A stretch of DNA of 64,000 nucleotides from an uncultured Chitinophaga sp. (GCA_964617955.1 CAZTXB010000014.1:8430-72429); one strand, 5' to 3'; counted from the stretch's first letter, positions 82 through 49,389 are shown. Numbers and translations are program-made. The notes: generated by a model not told the origin, from the letters alone.

Positions 82-268
82 TAGGGCTTGCTGAAAAAGT
101 TCAGTGAAACCGATTTCACTAAACTTCTCGCAAACCTTTGGTAGCACTATGATTCAACACTCCTCTACCAACTATTTTTGACTATTATGCCATCGCGCAT
201 TAAGAGCAATAAAAAATTTAATGAACCTCATGATATCAAGCCTTTAAGTGTTTTTCAGCAGGCCCTAA
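82..268. repeat. Intergenic element, copy 1, with 15-bp terminal inverted repeats (GGGCTTGCTGAAAAA ... TTTTTCAGCAGGCCC).
   Basis: The left arm is 85-99 and the right arm is 251-265. The conserved ends are shared with copy 2 at 48468-48708. The element starts at a TAG triplet. Confidence 0.6.
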
Positions 269-1413: not shown

Positions 1414-4400
1414 CTATTTACCTCTGAGAAGGGTAACGGTACCACTCATAGGCTTTTTACGTCCATCGTTAAGTGGTTTACCTTTAACTTGGTAATTCAT
1501 GATATAGAAATAAGTTCCTTCTGGACAGTCGGCGCCATCATTCTTAACTTTTCCGTTCCATCCAAACTTGGAATCCTGACTTTCGAAAACCACCTCGCCC
1601 CAACGGTTATAGATGGTGATATCGAATTTATCAAGACCCTGTGCTTTTACTCTAAACAAATCATTTAGGCCATCCTTTGGTTCAGGCGTAAATACGTTGT
1701 ATGGAATGATTACCGCTACGAATGTTGAACAAACTTCCTGATAAGCCGTATCGGTACATCCTATGGCATTTGTAGCAATAAGCGTTACCAAATGACAACC
1801 TGTATCAGGCCACTGGTAGCATGGATCCTTTAAAATAGAGCTTCCATTCGGGTTATCCTCAAAAATCCACTCATACTTCACAGCTCCTTGAGATGCATTC
1901 ACGAAACAGAAGAGTGGTGATTTGGTATCATCCACAGTAAAGTCAGCCTTCACATCCAATACAACCACATCGTGACTCACCGTGTCAAGGCACTTATGGA
2001 ACTCGGGCGTGTCGTAATCAGGTATCATAGTCACCTTGTACTTACCAACATTTGTAAACCTGTAGCTGGCAAAAGTATCAGTGGTATTTACGGTATCTTC
2101 AGTTCCAAATAACCAGGTAAAACGTTTGTACAGGGTATCGGAAACTGAGCTGAAGTTTAGCAAAGTATTTGGACAAATGGTGTCGTTTGGCAAGATATCA
2201 AACTCGGCAGGAGCTACAGCTTTCACTCTGATAATCCTTCGAACCGGAATATCAAAATCAGCCGTCGTGTCAGGATAAATAACAGAGCAACGCTTGTTTG
2301 GATCTCCCTGAATATTGGCAAACTGAGTTAAATAAACATAGTATGTACCAGGATTTTTATATCTATGACCCACCGACTTCTTAGTAGTATCTGAGTAAGT
2401 ACTTAAATCACCGAAGTCCCAAATCCATTTTGGATTCCAGCCGGTAGGGTTTGGTGGATCCCAACTGTTATTTATAAATGAAACTGAATCATTCACGCAT
2501 ACAACGGTATCACCAAGATGATCAAAATGTGGACGAGGACCTTCAATATGAATTTTTACACTGGTGCTGTCTTCACAACCCAGTTTGGTTCTCACTTTTA
2601 GCGTGATGGTAAAGTCTCCATTTTGAGTGTAATCGTGGGATGGGTTTTGCAATTTACTCTTGCGTTTTCCATCTCCAAAATCCCATGTGTACTCCACAAT
2701 ATTGTCGCAGGGTTTTCCTTTTGCCAACAGGCATGGGTCAATCACCTTACTGGTGTCGAGGAATGAGAAAATGTTCTTACATGGATTTGTAGAGGCATTG
2801 ATAACCTTTATACCTGCCTTAACACCGGTAACATATATTTTTTGTCTGGTGGTATCCACGCATCCCATACTGTCTTTCATGGCTATACGCACTGTATAAA
2901 TTCCGGGATCATCATAGTGCCATTTGAAAGGAGGCACTCCTATTCCTGTTGTTCCAAATAGGTTATTAGGATAGGCTATACTGTCGCAATAAGGTGGTAA
3001 TTTACTTTTCTTAATACTGTCGTTATGCTCATTCCAATCGATTTTCATCCTCTCGCGGTTGTTTACAAATCGGGTTGGCGTATTCCAGTAACGGGTTCCA
3101 TTGAGCCAATTGAAAGGATCCTGGTAAGCAAAATAACGGATGCTATCGCGCAACACAATATCGGTATTGCCATGACAAATGATAGAATCGGAGAACGTCC
3201 AGTTTGAGAAGAATCCAACAACCACCTCGGTATTCCGTGGTTGGAAACATCCTTCAGTATTTCTCAACTGGAAAGTTGGGAAATATCGGCTGGCCTTAGT
3301 ATAAGCATGTCGGTAAACACCTGGAGTCGCAGCTAAGTTGGTGAGCTTATTTGCTCTTAAGCTATCCCCATAGGTAGGTACTTTGCTCTTAATCATACTG
3401 TCATAAAGAATAAAACTCTTGCTTCTGATCACGCTGTCCCTATACACTTTTATTTTGCTCTTGGTCTTAGTGTAGACATACGTTTTCACATTGCTCTTGA
3501 TGGCGCTGTCGCCATAAGGTGGCAATTTACTTTTCACAGTAATTATGCTGTCATCCGAAACTTTTCTCCACCACCAGAACCATGAGAATTTGCTTCCCAA
3601 AATAAGCGGCTTAGGATTAAACAATTTCTTTTTAACGGTGCTGTCTTTGTAAATGAAACTTACAATGGTGCTGTCAAGGAAAGTAAAACTTTTAGCCTTT
3701 ATCACGCTGTCTCTATAAACACGCACCCTACTCTTTGTGATTAAACTGTCACGGAAGAATGCTTTTCTACTTTTTATGGTACTATCACCAAATGGACACA
3801 CCTTACTGGCAGTTTTAACTCTGTGCTTTAGAGTATCCCATCCTGCCTGACTGCTATCTCTCCAATGAAGTTTCTGAGATATAATCACTGAGTCCTTTTT
3901 GGTATAGTCGGTATAACGGTACCAGGTGTCACCAACTTTAAATCCAACGGTGGCAACGCTATCTTTCAATGTATTGACTTTGCTCTTCATGTATACCAGC
4001 ATGCTGTCGCGGAAAGGAGCAATCTTACTTTTCACCACACTGTCGGCAAATGGAGCTAATTTACTTTTTAGGCGCACTAGGGTAGTCCGGCTGGTCAATG
4101 CGTCCCGATAAGGCGCTACACCATAACTAATGAGACTACCTAAACCAGTGGTATCTATACATCCTTTACCTGAACCATTTCCAAAATAGAGTGGGATTTC
4201 AGTCGATGGAATTTCCGACATAACCAGATTAAGTGCCTTAAAGGCATTTTCAAGGGCCACTCCTGCCCTCGTGACATCTGCGGCTATTGTCCATTTTCGA
4301 ATAATGCCTGTTACGATGGTATCAAGTGTTTTGTAATTAAAACCGTCATACTCCAAGCGTATCACGTAACTATAGAGCCACTTGTCACCTTTTTTCCAGT

Positions 4401-7400
4401 CTTTAATGACCCGGTCATTCCGGTTATTATTAGGTCCGGGATAAGGTTTGTAGTAATAAGTTCTTTCTTCATAATACGAGCCCTGGTCATCGTTCCAATT
4501 CCATACCAGCTGGGTTACGCTGTCCATTTTCGGATCAACAAGTTGGAAGGTAATGGTATCGCCAACGCAAACCGTTTTTTGGGTTCTTTCAGGAACGATC
4601 ACTGTAAATCTTGAATCGAGATAAAGATACCTGAAGGCATTGTGGTACCAAGTTGTATCTATACATTCGATGGTATCAAGTGGCGCGGCATAATCCATCC
4701 AACGGCCGTTTCCAATAATAACACCTACTGTTACCCAACCCGGATTACGGTTCTGAATTTGTCCGGCCGTGTAAGGCATCACAAATCGTGTAGGGTAAGC
4801 ACCTGCAGGCTGATAGCCTGGGTGCCATGGCTGGGCTCCTGGTAAAGGTGGTGACAAGAAACCACCATGAGTTACCCAATTGTTGGTTCCTCCGGCCGAG
4901 TCGAAATTAAATTTGAGCAACCTTTGGGTACAACCCGGTTTGGTCTCCCCTACGTCAAAAATCATACCATATGGTGGACTTGGGGGTGCATAGCATTTAA
5001 TACCTTCCCACTTTAACCCTCTACCGTTTGGCGGAACCAGTGCTAATGAAATTTGTCCCTGGCTCTTGCAGCGAAGGGAATGCACTGTATCCTCATGGTA
5101 TAGGGAAACGGTATTGCATTGGGCAGTATTAAAATAAAAATTCTCGCGGTGGAAGTTGGAGTCAATATAAATACGACTTCTGGTTACAAAAGTGTCTCTT
5201 CCACCAATGATGGTATCCACACAAATGGTAGTAGGCTGCGCGTTGATGGTTCTGCCGGCGGTGATATAAAATTGAGACCTAGAGAAGGCTGTATCGGCGA
5301 TGATGCGATACTCACTAATGTTCAGAACATCATTTCCAGATTTAATAGGGTTGCTGATAGGTCTTTTGACCTTTTGTCCATTGACATAATAAATGATACT
5401 GTCAGCATCTCCGTATTTTTGGTAGAAGGTTTCAAGCGTATCTTTTTCAAGGAAGAAACGGGTTACCTTTCCAAGATCAGCATTAACCTTTTGCTTTGTT
5501 ATTTTTGAATTTTCACGGACTCCCCAATTTTCAACGGTGCTGGTATCTCCCACATAAGTTCCTCCACCCGGAATGGTTCCTACCTTGTATGGACGCAATG
5601 AGTAACCATGTAAGGGTTCATCGTGCATATGCCAGAGTTTAAGATAAACAACCGGTCTGCTGCTGGTTAAGGTGTAAGTACGCCACTGGCGCTCTGGCTC
5701 CAACTGCATCTGGTCCGTCATGTTTCTCAGAGTCACCATACCATTAGGTTGGTTGGTGTAAACACCTGTTCTGATGTTTTTCACAGTAATACTATCAGGC
5801 GTTTGTAAAAACCATTTTTCATCACTTAGGGTTGGAACATAGGAGCCCATCCCTGCAATGTAGGTCGGTACTTTTTTAATTCTGAAGGAGCCTGTAAATT
5901 TCTCCGGTGTACTCGGTTTAATGGTATCTTTTCCAAAAAATACCATGGTGGAATCCTGAGGCACAATCACCAAAGTATCGGCCGGAATCACAAAAGAATT
6001 GGCGGGATAGTAGCGAATCTTATAACAATATCTTCCTCCTTTACACAATACGGTCTTCTCAGCGGCGGTAGCGTAAAACTGACCATTGTTATAATTCTTG
6101 TACAATTGTTCCCAAGGGGTATACCAATGCACAGGCAAGCTATCTCTGCTAAAATTACAGTTAAGCCCTACGTTTTTATTTTTTCTTGTATCAGTGGTAC
6201 ACTTAGGAGCGTAGTTATCTCCAAAGGTCCACAATCTTAAAGCATGTTCCTTATGTCTTTGGCGGGCAGGAGGGAAAACCGATGGGATAGCAGTTTGATC
6301 ACCGGGCCATCTGAAGGCATATTCTTTTACCTTGCTAAAAATGATTGTATCCTTCCCTGAAATGATTGGATTAATAATTGCCTTCCTGACCTTCTTACCA
6401 TTGATATAATAAATGATACTGTCTTTTTCGTTGGCTGTTAAGCTCAATGTTTCAAGCGTATCCTTATCCAGGTATAAAATAGTTGTGATCCCATATTTAC
6501 CCTGATAGGTTCCGAAAGGTTGTATGGTGTCAAGTGTTAATGGCTTCTCCCAATAGCCCACCTTATTTCGGCTGGCTGAGGTAAAATAAGTAAACACCCT
6601 TGAACTGTCTTCAAACACAGGAACATCGTCCACATGATAAAAACTCGAGTTGTTTACAAAATGTACCGAGTCGCGGATTACGCATTGGTATTTTTCATCT
6701 TCCTTAACCCTGTTAAAGGGTATCTCAATCGTAGAAGTAGGTCCTATTTTTGTGATGGTATCAAATACCGTCACATTGCAAGGCCCGCTTCTGATATTTA
6801 CCGAAGCCATCCAGGGTCCTAACGGATAGTTATGTGCAGCTTTTATTAAAGTTCTGTTGTTGAAGTTTGCAGGACCTGCTGGCGGCCGTCCAAAATTCCA
6901 CAAGAAATTACTTGAGCTAATCGGCTGCAAGGTATTTCTGTCCACAGCTGTATATTCAACCAAAGGGGTGCTCGAGCAAGAAGAATCCGGGTCGGCTATG
7001 ATTTTAACATTCAAAATAGAGATGGTTGCAGCCGCCTTAAAAGTGAACGAATCGACACAACCATGAATGGTGGTAACTGTTAATTTCCCATTGAAAACAT
7101 AGGTGCCACTGGGCATCCCCGTGACATTATACGTATGTGTGTGAACCCCGTTACCGGTTGGTCCCATCCACCATTGTGTATTAATACCCAAGCTACCGCT
7201 TCCTGTGATAATGTTGTTAAATGACCCCGGGAATCCATAGTTCCAAACGAAAGATTTAATGGAAGATAAAGGCGTAAATGCAGGTGTTAAGTTTCTGATG
7301 GTAGCTACCGATTGAATACAAGCATTGGGTCCTGAGGCAGTGAAGTTTACCCCTATTTTAGGAAACACCCTAATGAAGGTGTCGTATTTGACCTTGGTTA

Positions 7401-7980
7401 TACAGCCATTTGAATCTTCCGACTCTATGGTTAAATCGAAATATCCTCCAGCCGGATCTATCACGCTATGGCAGATGGTATCGCCACCTTTTGGATTGGT
7501 GAGAACGTAAAGCGCGCCATCACTAAAAAGATATTTTGTTTTTAGAATTTTGCCGGGATTGGCAGCTTTAGTGCTGTCGATAAAGCAAAATTTATTTCCT
7601 AGGAAACATTGATTTTTATTGTGGAGTGGGCGGGTAAATACACGTGGACTTGCCTTAATCACTATATCGAAAGAGCCCGTACATTTTACGCCGGTTACGC
7701 TATTGGTAAAAGTGTAGGTAACGGTATAAGTACCTGCTTTGGAATAGGCATAAAAAGGATCGCGTTGCGTGGAAGTTCCTCCATTTCCAAAATCCCAGGC
7801 ATAGACATCCTTTCCAGGCGAATTGGCCACAAAAAATATGGGTGAGTTTTCGCAATTTGAACTTTTTGTTTTATCCCAGAATGGATTACAGGCTTGGCCC
7901 TGACTGAACTTTGAACCTGTAATTAAAAGCAGCAACATGCCGATTTTCAATAACGCTGAGATGGTTTTGTTTTTTCTCAT
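1414..7980 (-). CDS. Giant secreted cell-surface protein of 2188 aa. It has a signal peptide, PKD-like domains, an internal 13-aa tandem repeat array and a T9SS type-B (gliding motility-associated) C-terminal domain.
   Basis: The N-terminus MRKNKTISALLKIGMLLLLITGSKFSQGQA is a Sec signal. There are multiple W/FDFGDG...Y PKD-type motifs. The C-terminus reads YNVFTPEPKDGLNDLFRV...IYNRWGEVVFES...WNGK...GTYFY...GTVTLLRGK, which is the T9SS type-B CTD consensus. Confidence 0.9.
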   Translation of the reverse strand: MRKNKTISALLKIGMLLLLITGSKFSQGQACNPFWDKTKSSNCENSPIFFVANSPGKDVYAWDFGNGGTSTQRDPFYAYSKAGTYTVTYTFTNSVTGVKCTGSFDIVIKASPRVFTRPLHNKNQCFLGNKFCFIDSTKAANPGKILKTKYLFSDGALYVLTNPKGGDTICHSVIDPAGGYFDLTIESEDSNGCITKVKYDTFIRVFPKIGVNFTASGPNACIQSVATIRNLTPAFTPLSSIKSFVWNYGFPGSFNNIITGSGSLGINTQWWMGPTGNGVHTHTYNVTGMPSGTYVFNGKLTVTTIHGCVDSFTFKAAATISILNVKIIADPDSSCSSTPLVEYTAVDRNTLQPISSSNFLWNFGRPPAGPANFNNRTLIKAAHNYPLGPWMASVNIRSGPCNVTVFDTITKIGPTSTIEIPFNRVKEDEKYQCVIRDSVHFVNNSSFYHVDDVPVFEDSSRVFTYFTSASRNKVGYWEKPLTLDTIQPFGTYQGKYGITTILYLDKDTLETLSLTANEKDSIIYYINGKKVRKAIINPIISGKDTIIFSKVKEYAFRWPGDQTAIPSVFPPARQRHKEHALRLWTFGDNYAPKCTTDTRKNKNVGLNCNFSRDSLPVHWYTPWEQLYKNYNNGQFYATAAEKTVLCKGGRYCYKIRYYPANSFVIPADTLVIVPQDSTMVFFGKDTIKPSTPEKFTGSFRIKKVPTYIAGMGSYVPTLSDEKWFLQTPDSITVKNIRTGVYTNQPNGMVTLRNMTDQMQLEPERQWRTYTLTSSRPVVYLKLWHMHDEPLHGYSLRPYKVGTIPGGGTYVGDTSTVENWGVRENSKITKQKVNADLGKVTRFFLEKDTLETFYQKYGDADSIIYYVNGQKVKRPISNPIKSGNDVLNISEYRIIADTAFSRSQFYITAGRTINAQPTTICVDTIIGGRDTFVTRSRIYIDSNFHRENFYFNTAQCNTVSLYHEDTVHSLRCKSQGQISLALVPPNGRGLKWEGIKCYAPPSPPYGMIFDVGETKPGCTQRLLKFNFDSAGGTNNWVTHGGFLSPPLPGAQPWHPGYQPAGAYPTRFVMPYTAGQIQNRNPGWVTVGVIIGNGRWMDYAAPLDTIECIDTTWYHNAFRYLYLDSRFTVIVPERTQKTVCVGDTITFQLVDPKMDSVTQLVWNWNDDQGSYYEERTYYYKPYPGPNNNRNDRVIKDWKKGDKWLYSYVIRLEYDGFNYKTLDTIVTGIIRKWTIAADVTRAGVALENAFKALNLVMSEIPSTEIPLYFGNGSGKGCIDTTGLGSLISYGVAPYRDALTSRTTLVRLKSKLAPFADSVVKSKIAPFRDSMLVYMKSKVNTLKDSVATVGFKVGDTWYRYTDYTKKDSVIISQKLHWRDSSQAGWDTLKHRVKTASKVCPFGDSTIKSRKAFFRDSLITKSRVRVYRDSVIKAKSFTFLDSTIVSFIYKDSTVKKKLFNPKPLILGSKFSWFWWWRKVSDDSIITVKSKLPPYGDSAIKSNVKTYVYTKTKSKIKVYRDSVIRSKSFILYDSMIKSKVPTYGDSLRANKLTNLAATPGVYRHAYTKASRYFPTFQLRNTEGCFQPRNTEVVVGFFSNWTFSDSIICHGNTDIVLRDSIRYFAYQDPFNWLNGTRYWNTPTRFVNNRERMKIDWNEHNDSIKKSKLPPYCDSIAYPNNLFGTTGIGVPPFKWHYDDPGIYTVRIAMKDSMGCVDTTRQKIYVTGVKAGIKVINASTNPCKNIFSFLDTSKVIDPCLLAKGKPCDNIVEYTWDFGDGKRKSKLQNPSHDYTQNGDFTITLKVRTKLGCEDSTSVKIHIEGPRPHFDHLGDTVVCVNDSVSFINNSWDPPNPTGWNPKWIWDFGDLSTYSDTTKKSVGHRYKNPGTYYVYLTQFANIQGDPNKRCSVIYPDTTADFDIPVRRIIRVKAVAPAEFDILPNDTICPNTLLNFSSVSDTLYKRFTWLFGTEDTVNTTDTFASYRFTNVGKYKVTMIPDYDTPEFHKCLDTVSHDVVVLDVKADFTVDDTKSPLFCFVNASQGAVKYEWIFEDNPNGSSILKDPCYQWPDTGCHLVTLIATNAIGCTDTAYQEVCSTFVAVIIPYNVFTPEPKDGLNDLFRVKAQGLDKFDITIYNRWGEVVFESQDSKFGWNGKVKNDGADCPEGTYFYIMNYQVKGKPLNDGRKKPMSGTVTLLRGK
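3355..4075 (-). repeat. Coding tandem repeat array inside the 2188-aa protein. The unit is 39 nt (13 aa), there are about 18-20 copies, and each contains a DS dipeptide.
   Basis: The motifs gctgtc (DS on the minus strand) and ttgctctt (KSK) recur about every 39 nt. Peptide units include KSKLAPFADSVV, KSKIAPFRDSMLV, KSRVRVYRDSVIK, KSKLPPYGDSAIKS and KSKIKVYRDSVIRS. Confidence 0.7.
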
Positions 7981-35989: not shown

Positions 35990-36194
35990 GGGGCTTAAAT
36001 ACATCAGTTATTTTGTTTCTTTAGAGAAATATAATACCCCAAAGACAGAATGGATTTTTAAGGTAATGTGGTCAAAAATAGTTGGTAGATTTTAGACTAA
36101 TTAGGTTTAAAATAGCCGCATCAATCTGAAGAGGAAGTAAGCTCTGGTGGAGACCAACTTGCGAGCAATAGGATTGATGCATTAAAGGTAATAG

Positions 36195-36225
36195 GCAGTT
36201 CTTTTTATGAGCTGCCTTTTTTTAT
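36195..36225 (+). terminator. Rho-independent terminator candidate.
   Basis: The stem ggcagttc / gagctgcc is 8 bp with one G-U pair and a 7-nt loop (tttttat). It is followed by a 7-T run. It lies about 200 nt past the carboxyltransferase stop and immediately 3' of an inverted-repeat element. Confidence 0.5.
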
Positions 36226-36318
36226 ATTACCTGTATGCCTGTATCGCTAAAAAAAACTCATTTGTTATTGGACAAATAGACGTACCATTGCCTTTATTTG
36301 CAATGGACAAGATATTAA

Positions 36319-36759
36319 CCAGCAGACCCTAATATAGTATTTAGTGGAATACTAAACTCGAATAGTCAAATAGGTAAAATATTAATCAACTCAAGCAAAC
36401 ATTTTCAATTTTATAGTTGCGATTTTCTTAAAGTAGAAATAATAAAACACAGGGAAAAGCTCCTCCAACTGACCAAACTAAACGAGAATGAATTAAATGA
36501 GTTGGAAACATTGGTAACATCCAATATCACGTTTATTAATGAAGGTCTTATTCCAAAAAGAGAGATTGATGAATCACTTGAAATGTTAAAGGATATTGAT
36601 ATCAAGGATGCCCCTTTCGTGGCATTGACAAAATATCTTAATGGAACTCTTTGGACAGGGGACAAAGTTCTGATCAATGGATTAAAGGCAAACAAATTTC
36701 TGAAAACAATCACAACTTCTGACCTTTTTCATAGACTTGACGATTTAGAGAGAGAATAG
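36319..36759 (+). pseudogene. Possible PIN-domain (VapC-like) gene remnant.
   Basis: The C-terminal part (DIKDAPFVALTKYLNGTLWTGDKVLINGLKA) matches the PIN C-terminal hA..A....lLTxD motif. The annotated ORF uses a TTG start at 36502. The frame stays open upstream to 36319 without a recognisable PIN N-terminus or ATG. Confidence 0.3.
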
Positions 36760-38559: not shown

Positions 38560-39011
38560 AATGCTCCAAAAGTTATCAATCTTGTATAAATCAGAGAATG
38601 AAAAGAATCCTATTAATATTATCAATTCTAGTCTTCAATCCACCAAGTCATAGCCAATCTATTTTTTTTGACAACCTCAACAACTCCATTTGGACTTCAA
38701 CAGCAGAAATTTCAGATTCCATCTTAAAAACCTCAAAACAAATTCCCATATCAAAACTTATTTATTCAAAGGACTCCATTGATAAAGATGTGACTATATG
38801 GCTATTCAAAGACGGCTTTTTATAAATAGTCTATTATAATCATCAGTCAAAAACTGAAAACTTGGTAGGTACTTATGAATATTTAATCGAATTAAATAAG
38901 GGTACGTTACAACTGATTGTTGAGAATGTCACCTTAAAATATAAAGTTGGTATTGTTTCTTCTGGCTATCATGCTGTACTTTTACGGACAAAAGAGAGAA
39001 GAAAAAAATGA
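38556..39011 (+). pseudogene. Small secreted protein gene interrupted by an in-frame TAA at 38823-38825.
   Basis: The 89-aa ORF has a signal-like N-terminus. After the TAA the same frame stays open for 61 more codons (IVYYNHQSKTENLVGTYEYLIELNKGTLQLIVENV...) until a TGA at 39009-39011. Confidence 0.4.
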
Positions 39012-39217
39012 AAACTTGATTCAAATACAGGGAATAAAATTAATAGCCAGTCTAGCAAGGAATAAAAATCCCTATCAAATTTACTATTTCCTTTTCTGAA
39101 AGTTTGAAAACCAGATCACAGATCCAAAACTAAGTCAAATCTGTAAGCCTGAATTTTAGTTCATAATTTTACCAATCAATTTTTTTTGATAATTTTTGTA
39201 AATTTGAATAAGTAAAC

Positions 39218-39457
39218 ATGAGAACATTAAATATATCCATATCCGACATTGAGTTTAACAAATATGGATTAACAAAAGAAAAATTAACGTTTACAGATCT
39301 CATCGAACTGGTTATCAGAGAATTGACCCGTCAAAACTTGAACAAAAGCGTAGAACTTGCCGAAAAGTACGGACTTTCTAAAATGACTATGGATGAAATC
39401 TCAGACGAAGTAAAATATGTCAGAGAAGATGCAAAGGGTCGTGATATATACCAATGA
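39218..39457 (+). CDS. Small hypothetical protein.
   Basis: The 79-aa protein is charged and helical. I recognise no family. Confidence 0.35.
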   Translation: MRTLNISISDIEFNKYGLTKEKLTFTDLIELVIRELTRQNLNKSVELAEKYGLSKMTMDEISDEVKYVREDAKGRDIYQ

Positions 39458-39692
39458 TATAGTTTCATCCTTTATTTAATGAATTAAAGGTAAACAATAT
39501 AAACCAATTAAAACCTGATGGCTAACCGAGTTGAATGCGAAAATGCTTTTTTCTCTTAGCTTTAGCTCGCATCAGAATCCATCCTTTTCAAATTCCATTC
39601 ACCCCTAAGTTCATGCCTGCAACCAAACCCGAAACAACAAACTCGAACCCCCAAACCAAAAACCCCCAAACCCTCAAACCTCAAAACCCTCC

Positions 39693-43979: not shown

Positions 43980-46900
43980 TTGAGTGAGCCAATGCCTAAA
44001 GGTAGCAACATATTATTCTTAGTCTTTTTAGCGCTTTGTCCTGGGTTTGGATTTTCACAAAGCGATGCGTCCCTGGCCTTTGTCAAAAATTTGGGCCAAT
44101 TTGAACCAGAGGTTTTGTTCAGAGTACAACTTCATCACGGCTATATTTATTTGGAAAAAAACGGCATCACCTTTAAGTTGTTCGAAGAACAGGATTACAA
44201 TGAGCATCACCGCCATTTAAGCCACGACATCGAAAAGGAAGAAACGGCTATGCGTGGACATTCTTTTCAGTACCGTTTTCTAAACAGCATGCCACTTGCG
44301 ATTGAAGGTTTAGAACCTTTTCAAGAGAAACACAATTATTTTTTGGGAAACGATAAAAAAAAGTGGGCTTCACATGTTCCACTCTTTTCTGAGGTGGTTT
44401 ATAAAAACATTTATCCATCCATCGATTTAAAAATCTTTTCGCAATTCGGACGCTTAAAATATGAATGGGAAGTGAATCCTGGCGCTCAGATCAAGGACAT
44501 TTCTATAGAAATAATAGGGCTCGATTCGCTAAGCGTTAAGGAGAATAACCTATTGCTGTATACCTCTATAGGATGCTTTCCCGATAAAAACTTGTGGGTT
44601 TGGCAAAAACCTAATAAAGAATTAAACGCCAGGCAACTTGTAGCTAGCCAGTACCGAATAACTCATAACGTGGTGAGCTATTTTTTACCTGAGGGGTATG
44701 ATCAAACGCTGCCTTTGATCATTGACCCGGTGTTGGTATTTTCGACTTATTCGGGTTCTAAGGGCGACAACTTTGGATTCACAGCTACTTATGATGCGAG
44801 GGGAAATTTATACGCAGGTGGCATCACCGACAACACCCATGGAGAGTACCCCGTTACCAAAGGGGCCTTTCAGGACAGCTGCCATAAAGGATATGGTGGC
44901 ACGGGTGGCAGGGGCCGACCGCCGGTAAATTTGCCATGTGACATCACCATTAGCAAATACGATTCATCCGGCAAAAATTTACTTTATGCCACCTATGTTG
45001 GAGGCAGCGACGATGAGTATCCACATAGCATGGTGGTGAATTCAAAAAATGAGCTCATGGTTTTCGGGACCTCTTATTCATTTAACTTTCCAATGTTGGC
45101 AAGTGGATATGATACCTCGCACCACAGGGATACCGGCAGCATCATCGACACCGACATTGTAGTTTTCATATTATCAGAGAAAGGAGATTCATTAAAAGGC
45201 TCTACTTTTTTTGGCGGAAGCAAAAACGACGGTCTCACAAACTCAGCCTTGCGGTATAATTACGCCGACGATTTCAGAGGTGAGGTACTCACAGATAAGT
45301 CTGATAATATTTTTGTAGTTAGCAATACCAATTCGCCCAAACTTCCAATGATAAAATCGATTAAGGATACGCTTGAAGGGGTTTCGGATGGCATCTGCCT
45401 TAAATTTTCCAAAGGGCTCGACCAACTGTTATGGTCAACCTATTACGGAGGAAACAATGCCGATGCGATTTACAGTTTGGAGTTCGACCAAGACGAGAAC
45501 ATTTACATTGGCGGCGGCACCTCGAGCACAAATCTACCTAAAAGCACGGGCAGTTTCGGGAGCTCCAATCATGGTGGAATAGATGGCTTCGTGGCCTCTT
45601 TTAAAAAAGACAGTTTCAGTTTGAAACAAAGCACTTATTTTGGAACCGCTGCCTATGACCAGCTTTATTTTTTAGAAATCGACAAGCTGGGCAAAATTTA
45701 TGCTACAGGACAAACCGAGGGCAATATCACGGCCTCCTATGGCACCTATAACAATCGCCAAAATGCAGGGCAGTTTATTTTTATTTGTGATGATTCACTC
45801 AAAAGAATACACAAACAAACGGTGTTCGGGTCAATGACCAACAAACCAAATTTTTCCCCCTCTGCCTTTTTGGTCGATTCTTGTGGAAGCATTTATATCT
45901 CCGGTTGGGGGTTAACTTCAGGTTTGCCCATCACCTCCAATGCCTTACAAAGCTCAACCGACGGCCAAGATTTTTATTTAGCAGTTTTTGCAAAAAACAT
46001 TTCTAGTTTATTGTTCGGTACATTTTTTGGTGGCAATAAATCTCAGGACCATGTGGATGGAGGCACAAGCAGGTTCGACAAAAAAGGCATCATTTACCAG
46101 TCGGTTTGTTCAAGCTGCCCTGGCACCCCAGGTTCAACTTTAAATGATTTTCCGACCACAAGCTCGGCCGCATTTCCAAAAAATGTAAGTTGGCGATGCA
46201 GCAATGCAGCTTTCAAAATCGATTTTCAAATCAACAACGTTGTCAAGGCAAAATTCAAACCCGATTCCATTTTATGTGGTCCTGCCGATATTCAATTCTC
46301 TAACCAAAGCATTGGAAATGGAAGGTATTTCTGGAGTTTTGGCGATGGCCAAACTTCAACAGCCCTGGTGCCAAAACACAGTTATGCCGACACTGGAAAA
46401 TACACCATTCAACTCATTGCCATTGACTCCAACGCCTGTAACTTTTCTGATACCGCCATTAGAAAAATTCAGGTTCTACAAAAACCTACAGCCCTTTTCA
46501 CCGCTGTGGTTTCCAAATGTTTTAATCAGGTAGAAATCACCCACAAAAGCAAAGATTTTACCACCCTGCACTGGAATTATGGTGACGGGAATCAAGACCA
46601 GGTTCAGTCCCCCAATCCCAGGGTTTACAAATACGACACCGGGAGTTACAGGCTGAGTTTAATAACCGACGCCAACAAATTCTGTAAAGATTCCATGAGC
46701 CTAAACCTCAAAATAAATGAAATTAAATATGTAAAAGCTTTGTTCAAACCCGATACCACCTTATGCGGCCCGGCCAGAGTTCAATTCAAAAATTACAGCG
46801 ACAGCTCGGCAACCTACTTTTGGGATTTTGGGGACGATAGCACCTCATCCGCAAAAAACCCCCTTCATTCTTTTCCCTCCACCGGTCAGTATCATATTAA

Positions 46901-48470
46901 GCTCATAGTAACGGATAGCAACTCTTGCAATGGCAGCGACAGTGTGTTAAAAGTGGTGAATATTTTAAAAAAGCCCGATGCAATATTTAATTTAAAACAA
47001 TACAAATGCAACTGGGAAATTGATTTGAAAAACAGTTCTAAATCATACCGCTCCGTTAAGTGGAGTTTTGGTGATGGTAACTCCAGTACGGATAGCAATT
47101 TAACATCTTACACTTACAACAGTCCAGGGAAATATAAATTGACCCTTTATGCCGACAATAATTACTGTTCGGACAGCATGACCAAAGAACTGGAAATTAA
47201 AATAAAGACCTATGTAAAAGCAGGTTTTGAGCCTGACACGCTTTTTTGCGGTCCAGGAACCGTAAAATTTAGAAATGTAGGAACAGGAGCTTATTTATGG
47301 GATTTTGGTGACTCTAAAACGTCTACTGACACGAATCCTTCTAACTTTTATGCGAAAGAGGGGGTGTTTAGGGTAAAACTTGCTGTAAAAGACAGTTCAA
47401 CTTGCAATGAGCAGGACAGCGCGTTTAGAACGGTAGAAGTCATACCCATTCCTAAAGCCGATTTTAACCTAATCGTTCAACGATGTAGAAGTGAGGTTGA
47501 AGTTGAGAATAACAGTGTCAACCACCTCTATTCGAATTGGCAATTTGGCGATGGGGCGTTAAGCACTTTAGAAAACCCAATATCACATGTTTATTCAAAT
47601 ACGGGAACTTACACCATCACCCTGAAAATAGCCCACAAAATATGTAAGGACAGTATTTCAAAAACATTTGAACTAAAACCTAAAACTTTTGTAATTGCCG
47701 GTTTCAAACCCGACACGGCCTTATGCGACCCGGGTGATGTGCAATTCCGAAACTTAAGTTCAGGATCCGGCTTGTATAGGTGGGATTTTGGAGAGGGTTC
47801 AACTTCCGCTTTGTTTGAGCCGATGCATCGCTTTAATCGAATTGGTCGTTTTATTACAAAACTTTTGGTTGAGGATACCAGTACCTGTAATTTAAAAGAT
47901 TCTGCATTTAGAACCATTGACATAAACCCGCAAAGTCATGCCGCCTTTCATCTGAATGTCTCTGAATGTTTGAGTCATGTAGAGATTATAAATAACAGTG
48001 AAACTTTTCAAACAGTAGACTGGGATTTTGGAGATGGGGGTACCAGCCAAAAAGAGCATCCCGGGATTTACACCTACAAAGACTCGGGAAAATACCGCAT
48101 CCGACTCATCACCGATGCGGGAAATGTTTGCCCTGATACTGCCTATTTCCTGGCTCATGTTACGGGTACTCCTGCCGATATTTTTTTGCCAATAAACGTG
48201 TTTACCCCTGATGGAGATGGCCTAAACGATTGCTTTCATTTCGGGGGTCGACTCAACCATTGCAGTGAAATAAAAATTTATATTTATGACCGATGGGGTC
48301 TTAAAATGTTTGAAACCGACGATTTCAACTCCTGCTGGAACGGTCGCATTTTCAATTCAGGCAGAGAGTGTCCCGAGGCTACTTATTTTTACTTATGCCA
48401 CTACAAAGGGGAGTCAACATCTATCCAATCCAGGTTTTCCGGAACCGTAACGCTCATCCGAGGTAAGTAG
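43980..48470 (+). CDS. Giant secreted protein of 1496 aa. It has an N-terminal beta-propeller (SBBP-like) region, about 10 tandem PKD-like domains and a T9SS type-B C-terminal domain.
   Basis: The signal peptide is ILFLVFLALCPGFGFSQS. There are repeated F.PD...CGP..V.F.N.S.G...Y.WDFGDG.TS modules. The C-terminus reads INVFTPDGDGLNDCFHF...IYDRWGLKMFE...CWNGR...ATYFY...GTVTLIRGK. Confidence 0.9.
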   Translation: MSEPMPKGSNILFLVFLALCPGFGFSQSDASLAFVKNLGQFEPEVLFRVQLHHGYIYLEKNGITFKLFEEQDYNEHHRHLSHDIEKEETAMRGHSFQYRFLNSMPLAIEGLEPFQEKHNYFLGNDKKKWASHVPLFSEVVYKNIYPSIDLKIFSQFGRLKYEWEVNPGAQIKDISIEIIGLDSLSVKENNLLLYTSIGCFPDKNLWVWQKPNKELNARQLVASQYRITHNVVSYFLPEGYDQTLPLIIDPVLVFSTYSGSKGDNFGFTATYDARGNLYAGGITDNTHGEYPVTKGAFQDSCHKGYGGTGGRGRPPVNLPCDITISKYDSSGKNLLYATYVGGSDDEYPHSMVVNSKNELMVFGTSYSFNFPMLASGYDTSHHRDTGSIIDTDIVVFILSEKGDSLKGSTFFGGSKNDGLTNSALRYNYADDFRGEVLTDKSDNIFVVSNTNSPKLPMIKSIKDTLEGVSDGICLKFSKGLDQLLWSTYYGGNNADAIYSLEFDQDENIYIGGGTSSTNLPKSTGSFGSSNHGGIDGFVASFKKDSFSLKQSTYFGTAAYDQLYFLEIDKLGKIYATGQTEGNITASYGTYNNRQNAGQFIFICDDSLKRIHKQTVFGSMTNKPNFSPSAFLVDSCGSIYISGWGLTSGLPITSNALQSSTDGQDFYLAVFAKNISSLLFGTFFGGNKSQDHVDGGTSRFDKKGIIYQSVCSSCPGTPGSTLNDFPTTSSAAFPKNVSWRCSNAAFKIDFQINNVVKAKFKPDSILCGPADIQFSNQSIGNGRYFWSFGDGQTSTALVPKHSYADTGKYTIQLIAIDSNACNFSDTAIRKIQVLQKPTALFTAVVSKCFNQVEITHKSKDFTTLHWNYGDGNQDQVQSPNPRVYKYDTGSYRLSLITDANKFCKDSMSLNLKINEIKYVKALFKPDTTLCGPARVQFKNYSDSSATYFWDFGDDSTSSAKNPLHSFPSTGQYHIKLIVTDSNSCNGSDSVLKVVNILKKPDAIFNLKQYKCNWEIDLKNSSKSYRSVKWSFGDGNSSTDSNLTSYTYNSPGKYKLTLYADNNYCSDSMTKELEIKIKTYVKAGFEPDTLFCGPGTVKFRNVGTGAYLWDFGDSKTSTDTNPSNFYAKEGVFRVKLAVKDSSTCNEQDSAFRTVEVIPIPKADFNLIVQRCRSEVEVENNSVNHLYSNWQFGDGALSTLENPISHVYSNTGTYTITLKIAHKICKDSISKTFELKPKTFVIAGFKPDTALCDPGDVQFRNLSSGSGLYRWDFGEGSTSALFEPMHRFNRIGRFITKLLVEDTSTCNLKDSAFRTIDINPQSHAAFHLNVSECLSHVEIINNSETFQTVDWDFGDGGTSQKEHPGIYTYKDSGKYRIRLITDAGNVCPDTAYFLAHVTGTPADIFLPINVFTPDGDGLNDCFHFGGRLNHCSEIKIYIYDRWGLKMFETDDFNSCWNGRIFNSGRECPEATYFYLCHYKGESTSIQSRFSGTVTLIRGK

Positions 48471-48708
48471 GGCCTGCTGAAAAAGTTCAGTGTGCGTGCA
48501 GGACGAGGCGGCAAAGCGCAGATGTACTTTGACGTACCTCAAGCTGCAGCCGCCGAAGTGATGCATGTGCAATGAACTAACGACTTTATGAAGGAATTTG
48601 ATGCATGACATTTTCATACTTTACTGATTTTATCGTGCATTAATAGAAATAGAAGCTAATGTGAACCTAATCATATCAAGCTTTGAAGTGTTTTTCAGCA
48701 GGCCCTAA
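48468..48708. repeat. Intergenic element, copy 2, with a perfect 15-bp terminal inverted repeat (GGGCCTGCTGAAAAA ... TTTTTCAGCAGGCCC).
   Basis: It begins exactly at the TAG stop of the 1496-aa gene. About 26 nt on the left and about 60 nt on the right are conserved with copy 1. The interior is a GC-rich segment with internal inverted repeats. Confidence 0.6.
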
Positions 48709-48747
48709 GTAAAGTGCACCTTGGATTGATCAGCTACTTTTTGTAAA

Positions 48748-49389
48748 TCATTTTACAATCATGGTTTCTTCAAAAAATTTCACTTCCCCAGTGATGATAT
48801 CATGCACTCCACCTACAATTCCAATTTCGCCGTTTTCAATCATGCTCTTCAAAATCGGGCTCCTTTCGGTAATCGCCTTAAGTGCCCTGTTCACGTTGAT
48901 ACCGGTCACTTTGTCAACGAAGGCCTCGTTATTTGAGTTTCTATTTTCCTTTACCGTGGTTTCATCATCAACAGCAGGTCTGATTTTTGAAAGCAGTGAA
49001 GTTAAATTACCCATCTCCACGTGATCACAAGCTCCTTTAACGGCCCCACATCGGTTGTGGCCCATAATGGCTATAATTTTTGAGCCGGCTACCTTACAGG
49101 CAAATTCCATACTCCCTAAAATATCCTCATTGATAATGTTGCCGGCAATACGAATACTGAATATATCGCCAAGGCCCTGATCAAAAATTAACTCCGCCGA
49201 AGTACGGCTATCGATACAACTTAATATCACCGCAAAGGGATGTTGCCCATCTGACGTTTCGTTGGCTTGTTGCAAAAGATTGCGGTTTAATTTTAAGTTA
49301 TTGACAAATCGCTTGTTTCCATCCTTTAATAATTGGAGTGCCATGGACGGAGTAATGGCTGCTTGCATTTCTTTTGTGAGCGTTTTCAT
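48748..49389 (-). CDS. Beta-class carbonic anhydrase.
   Basis: The zinc ligand motifs are present: SCIDSR (C-x-D-x-R) and HNRCGAV (H-x-x-C). Confidence 0.85.
   Translation of the reverse strand: MKTLTKEMQAAITPSMALQLLKDGNKRFVNNLKLNRNLLQQANETSDGQHPFAVILSCIDSRTSAELIFDQGLGDIFSIRIAGNIINEDILGSMEFACKVAGSKIIAIMGHNRCGAVKGACDHVEMGNLTSLLSKIRPAVDDETTVKENRNSNNEAFVDKVTGINVNRALKAITERSPILKSMIENGEIGIVGGVHDIITGEVKFFEETMIVK

Follow-up and report, generated by a model that had tools for sequence, protein, structure and literature searches.

What are the two look-alike intergenic segments, each beginning at a TAG stop codon, that lie some 48 kb apart in a 64,000-nucleotide stretch of an uncultured Chitinophaga sp. 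(GCA_964617955.1 CAZTXB010000014.1:8430-72429; hereafter the window)? The initial annotation of this DNA proposed a MITE- or REP-like mobile or structured element, or alternatively a conserved 3'-UTR RNA. The analysis described here indicates, with a probability that we put at roughly 0.93, that both segments are MITEs, that is, derivatives of an ISMae6-like IS5-family insertion sequence that have lost the transposase through internal deletion. They show every structural hallmark of a MITE (size, terminal inverted repeats, target duplication, presence/absence polymorphism, dispersed copies and autonomous elements with matching ends). The MITE part of the original proposal is thus retained on the basis of an empty site, copies at unrelated loci and full-length IS5-family elements with the same ends, while no support remains for the REP-like identity or for a primary identity as a fixed 3'-UTR RNA.

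The terminal inverted repeat common to both copies is GGGCYTGCTGAAAAA (15 bp), and its arms pair at 14 of 15 positions in copy 1 and at 15 of 15 in copy 2. The two segments and their 15-bp repeat had been recognized correctly, with a one-base offset: the left arm of copy 1 is at 84-98, not 85-99. The stop codons are at 82-84 and 48468-48470, and the G of each is the first base of the element. The left end of both elements corresponds to the transposase-distal end (IRR) and the right end to the transposase-proximal end (IRL) of the full-length relatives described below. The features are as follows.

84-265, plus strand: copy 1 of the MITE, 182 bp, written from IRR to IRL; an ancestral transposase would have been encoded on the minus strand
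84-98, plus strand: IRR arm of copy 1, GGGCTTGCTGAAAAA; the conserved end reaches 106 (23 nt)
97-126, minus strand: short hairpin adjoining the IRR of copy 1, from self-complementarity and folds, with a terminator-like UUUUUCAG after it on the minus strand
192-265, plus strand: IRL-side conserved block of copy 1, about 75 bp, 81% identical to 48632-48706
195-200, plus strand: GCGCAT box of copy 1, inside the IRL-side conserved block
251-265, plus strand: IRL arm of copy 1, TTTTTCAGCAGGCCC
77-83: left target-site duplication of copy 1, TAACTTA, 7 bp, repeated directly at 266-272
266-272: right target-site duplication of copy 1, TAACTTA
48470-48705, plus strand: copy 2 of the MITE, 236 bp, from IRR to IRL; precisely absent from contigs L020, L021 and L022
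48470-48484, plus strand: IRR arm of copy 2, GGGCCTGCTGAAAAA
48485-48577, plus strand: 93-nt imperfect hairpin module adjoining the IRR of copy 2, from folds; kept in L005, L015 and L016
48598-48643, plus strand: second hairpin of copy 2 with TGCA...TGCA arms, on the IRL side, from folds
48691-48705, plus strand: IRL arm of copy 2, TTTTTCAGCAGGCCC; the conserved IRL block begins at about 48632
48464-48469: left target-site duplication of copy 2, TAAGTA, verified against the empty-site contigs
48706-48711: right target-site duplication of copy 2, TAAGTA, verified against the empty-site contigs

Copies 1 and 2 align over the left 23 bp and the right ~75 bp (81% identity). The homology ends sharply between TA and GGG on the left and between CCC and TA on the right, and the flanks are unrelated. 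As the initial annotation stated, the interiors differ; they cannot be aligned, and each opens with a hairpin straight after the left arm. The 23-mers of the left and right ends each occur exactly twice in the window and gave no match in 100 shuffles, and the 15-mer arm with up to two mismatches occurs four times against 0.3 expected. At 182 and 236 bp, the copies are under the ~600 bp of a MITE; only ORFs of 31-67 aa overlap them, and they lack transposase coding capacity.

Both copies are located between convergent genes. Copy 1 was placed 3' of a nucleotidyltransferase gene (minus strand, 294-1289) by the initial annotation; this position is correct, 28 nt beyond the stop of that gene, and copy 1 also abuts the stop codon (TAG, 82-84) of a plus-strand ORF that runs off the start of the window. 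Copy 2 is situated between the gene of a 1496-aa PKD/CHU_C (type IX secretion) protein (43980-48470, plus strand) and a beta-carbonic anhydrase gene (48748-49389, minus strand). As a separate observation, the window encodes two PKD-repeat proteins of very large size that end in CHU_C (type IX secretion) domains, the 1496-aa protein and a 2188-aa protein (1414-7980, minus strand), a pair that is consistent with a Bacteroidota host.

Mobility of copy 2 was established by comparison with related strains. An exact-protein look-up of the beta-carbonic anhydrase returned 7 contigs, including two filled sites (L018 and L019, both ending inside the element) and three without the element. The latter (L020, L021 and L022; Logan assemblies of SRR18749950, SRR18749948 and SRR19238513, respectively) encode an identical carbonic anhydrase. 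Their identity to the window is 97.7% in the alignment that reaches 48706 and ~99% in the one that runs downward from 48469, and these two flank alignments have 6 query bases in common. What is missing is thus 48470-48705 together with one TAAGTA: at this site, the three contigs have TAAGTA exactly once, as against TAAGTA-element-TAAGTA in the window. CACTT-TACTTA-CCTCGG is the sequence of the empty allele (junction sequence, CACTTTACTTACCTCGG), and TACTTA-[GGGCC...GGCCC]-TACTTA that of the filled allele. With six shared bases at the empty site, the 236-bp copy 2 therefore entered in one piece and duplicated a 6-bp target, and the comparison shows that copy 2 is a recent insertion, polymorphic between closely related strains (97.7-99% identical).

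The only other contig found with the nucleotidyltransferase of copy 1 (Logan contig L023) ends 23 nt inside copy 1, and no empty allele was seen there; the predicted pre-insertion sequence is ...GGCTAACTTAGGTTAAAC... The duplication of copy 1 was assigned from the direct repeat and the family pattern TA-N-TA, and is 7 bp, not 6 bp. Direct repeats at the ends are TAAGTA for copy 2, TAACTTA for copy 1 and TATTTA for a related element, L005, while the duplication of another, L015, is imperfect. At both sites, independently assembled contigs stop within the element, as a dispersed repeat would cause them to do.

Short copies were also found in other genomes. An uncultured Flavobacterium MAG has three elements of the copy 2 type at unrelated loci (L005, L009 and L015); identity to copy 2 is 80% over the full length for L005 and 73% for L015. 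A further copy-2-type element on a metagenome contig (L016) was the sole true relative from the metagenome scan with the left end; L017, from the same scan, was rejected as a chance match. A Bacteroidetes MAG (L004) holds a different short variant, and the right ends of L004 and L016 are degenerate. An uncultured-bacterium MAG (L003) has a copy-1-like fragment, the first 32 nt of which are 94% identical to copy 1. A Brocadia locus (L013) was discarded as a chance or coding match because it has no TA flank and no further similarity. Copy 2 DNA had no match in the plasmid and phage collections, and exact-end scans of viral contigs gave none either. Dispersed copies thus comprise two in the 64-kb window and three in the Flavobacterium MAG, plus L003, L004 and L016, and the neighboring genes differ at every locus. 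The same short architecture at different loci and in different genomes indicates that the short element itself transposes, and is not a full insertion sequence decayed in place.

The ends led to a probable parent. A search of 185,579 species genomes for exact occurrences of the left end gave 15 loci, 10 of which are in the cyanobacterium Richelia intracellularis (among them L001, L002, L006-L008, L010-L012 and L014). This organism carries ~10 copies of a ~1.68-kb element that opens with 23 nt identical to the IRR of copy 1 (84-106), and contig L014 contains the whole element. Its other tip is GGGTTTGCTGAAAAA, the 6-bp duplications are TACTTA, TACCTA and TAAGTA/TAGGTA, and the interior holds decayed pieces of an IS5 transposase (NF033578; fragments scoring 120 and 78 bits). 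Intact relatives were reached through the plasmid collection: ISMae6, an IS5-family element of 1686 bp in Microcystis aeruginosa (PMC2779907), and elements of Nostoc sp. C052, Fulvitalea axinellae (clade transposase WP_338393039.1) and Persicobacter sp. JZB09, the last two hosts being Bacteroidota. Each of these four encodes a transposase of ~498-503 aa. Three of the proteins, those of ISMae6, Fulvitalea and Nostoc, were scored with the NF033578 profile and gave 485, 303 and 482 bits (cut-off, 275). Their tips follow GGG(T/G)(T/C)T(G/A)CTGAA, and their duplications are TAATTA, TAGTTA or TATATA. Full-length relatives in Richelia, Microcystis, Nostoc, Fulvitalea and Persicobacter are alike in length (1.65-1.7 kb), in termini of the kind GGGNYTGCTGAAAAA and in a 6-bp TANNTA duplication. 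A transposase-profile scan of viral contigs added 8 further members, none of which has the exact MITE tips; most of those with comparable flanks have the TANNTA duplication, members with diverged tips included.

The window copies resemble the ISMae6-like elements in the terminal repeat GGGNYTGCTGAA(A/T)AA, in the 6-bp TANNTA duplication and in a TGCA box or hairpin ~65 nt inside the IRL. They differ in being 182 and 236 bp long and encoding nothing, whereas the full-length elements are ~1.65-1.7 kb with a DDE transposase of ~498-503 aa. The end match to autonomous elements is at the family level in all relatives and reaches 23/23 at the IRR with the Richelia insertion sequence. The TANNTA 6-bp duplication is found in full-length members and MITEs, and copy 1 deviates with its 7 bp. 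An (A/G)TGCA box occurs ~66 nt from the IRL tip in the MITEs and in 5/5 full-length insertion sequences compared. A TGCA...TGCA hairpin with this box as its 5' arm is predicted at the same distance from the IRL in copy 2, L005, Fulvitalea, Nostoc and, weakly, Richelia; that of ISMae6 is a reading by eye and is not in the minimum-energy fold. Genome, plasmid and viral-contig searches found no full-length element with GGGCCTGCTGAAAAA at both tips. A tblastn search with the transposases of Richelia, Microcystis, Nostoc, Fulvitalea and Persicobacter gave no match in the 64-kb window or the Bacteroidota loci, and no remnant within the elements.

Several observations lie beside this comparison. On the minus strand, a sigma-70-like pattern is present in both copies (258 to 230 and 48698 to 48670). 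It consists of a -35 box, CTGAAA, that falls within the terminal repeat and, after a spacer of 17 nt, a TG-extended -10 box (TATCAT or TATGAT). It points inward from the IRL, where the transposase promoter of the parent would lie; this is a pattern only, and Bacteroidota promoters differ. Two IMG/VR contigs (L030 and L031) encode relatives of the transposase (33-35% identity) between quite different tips (ATGTAAACTGCACAAA). The 6-bp duplication of L030 is also of the TA-NN-TA form (TACTTA), and the flanks of L031 do not match; this points to a target preference common to the whole transposase clade. For the left end, the best full-length match comes from a cyanobacterium, and the Bacteroidota full-length relatives (Fulvitalea and Persicobacter) match only 12-13 of 15 positions. 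The 23-nt IRR identity with a cyanobacterial insertion sequence may reflect cross-phylum transfer of the parent element. Finally, the Richelia copies contain, at varying positions, a distinct nested element of 91 bp (GGCGTTGCTGAATC...ATGCAACGCC; terminal inverted repeats of 8 bp):

L002, 3019-3109 and 3647-3737: 91-bp nested element
L006, 4740-4830: 91-bp nested element
L011, 3894-3984: 91-bp nested element
L012, 7105-7195: 91-bp nested element

Direct repeats of ~6-8 bp, for example GATGTTGT and AAGTATAA, flank several of these copies, and the nested element looks like a second, cyanobacterial MITE.

Both window elements fold well. Compared with shuffled sequences, the whole-element folds have z = -7.7 (plus strand) and -5.3 (minus strand) for copy 2 and z = -4.6 and -3.0 for copy 1; such strong folding is to be expected wherever an element has terminal inverted repeats. 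The single T/C difference between the left arms is real, and it had been interpreted as an RNA- or hairpin-level constraint (U·G versus C-G pairing with the same G). This interpretation fails on the wider comparison. Positions 4-5 of the terminal repeat vary freely across the insertion sequence clade (GGGCC, GGGCT, GGGTT, GGGTC and GGGGT), and the T variant of the IRR is a lineage feature common to copy 1, L003 and all Richelia copies. In the Richelia element, the tips are mismatched (C·A) at the T/C position and lie 1.6 kb apart. The local CTGAAaaagTTCAG hairpin that had been described in the left arm is likewise not kept in other family members. The arms of the terminal repeat are best read as transposase-binding sites.

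The covariation analysis proposed for aligned copies did reveal conserved structure, in an internal module and not in the terminal repeat. The 93-nt module 48485-48577 of copy 2 is 74-85% identical among copy 2, L005, L015 and L016. In the alignment of these four sequences, pairing extends to 96.7% of the cells, and compensatory changes are seen in 4 of 30 pairs. Of 500 shuffles used as controls, 2 attained the observed number of compensatory pairs and the covariation score, and 1 attained the paired fraction; slid registers pair at only 26-43%. With four sequences, these values are suggestive, not conclusive, of a hairpin-level constraint on the module. G·U pairs occur in six paired columns and A·C in none, and the plus strand (IRR to IRL) is more stable by 7-12 kcal/mol in 4/4 copies. 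The more stable strand is the opposite of the strand that has the U-run (terminator sense).

At the same place as the module of copy 2, copy 1 has its hairpin at 97-126 (-13.0 kcal/mol on the minus strand and -8.8 kcal/mol on the plus strand). The minus-strand hairpins 126 to 97 and 48577 to 48485 are both followed by UUUUUCAG, their stems are A+T-rich or imperfect, and a consensus terminator scan called neither. The ISMae6 and Fulvitalea elements also have a hairpin and then a T-run at the IRR, which in our reading of the sequences closes the transposase gene. Most simply, the IRR-side hairpins would be the terminator region of the parent, which the MITE has kept. Minus-strand read-through transcription of the nucleotidyltransferase and carbonic anhydrase genes would run into them. 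A search of the whole window against Rfam gave no match at the gathering score, and permissive scans of both regions gave chance-level hits only (E ≥ 1.7; eukaryotic snoRNA and plant-virus leader models).

The association with stop codons follows from the geometry of the junctions. Each TAG consists of the TA of the target duplication and the first G of the element, because every junction reads TA followed by G inward. Insertion of copy 2 changed the TAA of the T9SS/CHU_C gene (…GGT AAG TAA AGT… in the empty allele) to TAG and left the protein unchanged; the sequence predicted for the copy 1 site before insertion has TAG as well. A junction TAG closes a long ORF in 4 of 8 Bacteroidota short elements, namely copy 2 (1508 codons), L003 (429), L004 (243) and the IRL junction of L015 (638). 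That of copy 1 probably does so too, the ORF running off the window. Among ~20 junctions of cyanobacterial and plasmid full-length elements, none closes a long ORF. Only 3 of the 52 non-disruptive TANNTA sites in the window are stop-regenerating, so that an enrichment of insertions at stop codons is apparent. Normal convergent spacers in the window are 2-55 bp and almost devoid of TANNTA; selection on tolerated insertions is therefore a sufficient explanation for the bias. Purifying selection may leave only gene-end insertions, where stop codons supply the TA. Active targeting of stop codons is unproven. Apart from these short spacers, two convergent-gene intervals of the window are unusually long (35990-36410, 421 bp, and 38560-39692, 1133 bp); they contain no ORF of at least 100 aa and have no match in Rfam.

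Other explanations were weighed against the MITE assignment. With no more than two copies in view in the window, one could imagine that they arose by local or segmental duplication or resemble each other by chance, and the initial annotation had named a simple local duplication, with no further copies genome-wide, as the outcome that would overturn its proposal. This idea is scarcely tenable and was already refuted by the evidence above, the empty site included: the flanks are unrelated, homology stops at the terminal repeats, the interiors differ, shuffled sequences gave no matches, and copies occupy unrelated loci in genomes of other genera. A REP/BIME-like palindrome mobilized by a RAYT (IS200/IS605-type) enzyme would suit the hairpin-rich character and the intergenic location between convergent genes, and yet elements of 182-236 bp are far larger, have true terminal inverted repeats and a target duplication, lack a GTAG/CGTC head and end like a DDE IS5-family element, which leaves this origin with almost no credibility. 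The TA on both sides of every copy would also be expected of a Tc1/IS630-type MITE that duplicates only the TA dinucleotide. Such an assignment is very improbable, as the empty site shows that 6 bp were added, unless TA is counted in both ends and a TA-NN-TA target is still required. Moreover, the transposases of the matching elements score against NF033578 (303-485 bits), and the models listed are IS5, ISNCY and IS1182, with no IS630.

A different kind of alternative is that a host-selected structured RNA or 3'-end module (a terminator or mRNA stabilizer) follows these genes, its mobility being incidental or long extinct. The fold z-scores of both copies (-7.7/-5.3 and -4.6/-3.0), the 93-nt hairpin that is paired across four copies with four compensatory pairs and G·U on one strand only, the minus-strand IRR hairpins followed by UUUUU and the 4-5 of 8 Bacteroidota copies that abut the stop codon of a long ORF all accord with this idea. 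We nevertheless consider it unlikely. A closely related strain without copy 2 encodes the same flanking proteins, which makes the element dispensable and recently acquired, and the flanking genes are different at every locus. Neither Rfam nor the terminator scan recognized anything, foldability comes with terminal inverted repeats, and the covariation derives from four sequences, in which templated repair can keep palindromes paired without selection on RNA.

Comparison with described repeats supports an ordinary status for the two MITEs: they are not a new type of system but a usual kind of bacterial repeat. IS5-family-derived MITEs are known from Porphyromonas gingivalis (BrickBuilt, MITE239/PgRS and others; PMC4596501), and these share with the window copies a Bacteroidota host, IS5-matching terminal repeats, intergenic positions, long stem-loops and the lack of a transposase remnant or Rfam match. 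Their terminal repeat is different (GAGACCTTTGCA), which implies a different parent IS5 subgroup; in addition, their duplications are variable or short, BrickBuilt contains a minisatellite, and overlap with stop codons was not reported (PMC4596501). REP elements and BIMEs are likewise intergenic and hairpin-forming and often lie between convergent genes, whereas REP elements are only 20-40 bp, have no terminal inverted repeats or target duplications and are tied to RAYT enzymes. The Correia elements (CREE) of Neisseria are short, bounded by terminal inverted repeats, non-autonomous and inserted at TA-containing targets; they are often co-transcribed with their neighbors and can act as terminators or RNase III substrates. 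They differ from the window MITEs in unrelated sequence, a TA-only duplication, an unknown or different parent and another phylum.

We propose the following course of transposition for the MITEs. Only the cis-acting ends of the parent would have been retained: at the IRR, the 15-bp terminal repeat, eight further conserved bases and the adjacent hairpin, and at the IRL, the terminal repeat and ~60-110 bp of subterminal sequence with the conserved TGCA box or hairpin. A DDE transposase of the clade, supplied in trans by a full-length copy elsewhere, would bind both ends; because the window and the Bacteroidota loci contain no transposase of the clade, we infer this partner. The enzyme would excise or copy the element and insert it at TA-N2(3)-TA with a 6-bp (once 7-bp) staggered cut, thereby duplicating the target. 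As the element begins with G and ends with C beside the duplicated TA, insertion into the TA of a stop codon would rebuild TAG without altering the protein. A compact genome tolerates insertions of this kind, and the element consequently abuts stop codons. The hairpins may also affect neighboring genes, as terminators or stabilizers. A joint reading goes further: the ISMae6-like machinery or selection would favor stop codons, where the terminal G rebuilds TAG, and the MITEs would deliver a strand-specific RNA hairpin (its G·U pairs confined to the IRR-to-IRL strand) that would serve convergent genes as a portable module for 3' ends, a stabilizer or terminator placed between them. We regard this as a long shot, and quite unlikely as a whole. 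If it were true, the 23/23 IRR identity would also point to recent cross-phylum spread of the parent, and if the stop-codon bias and the strand-specific hairpin were functional, the elements would illustrate how a MITE can shape gene 3' ends.

The assignment as MITEs accounts for an unannotated repeat in the genome of an uncultured Bacteroidota, explains contig breaks in assemblies of the source organism and illustrates how an insertion can be placed harmlessly at a stop codon. It also defines the cis-requirements of a poorly described IS5 subgroup, with ~23 bp and a hairpin at the IRR, ~75 bp at the IRL and a TA-NN-TA target. Members of this subgroup are found in both cyanobacteria and Bacteroidota, and Firmicutes have more distant relatives.
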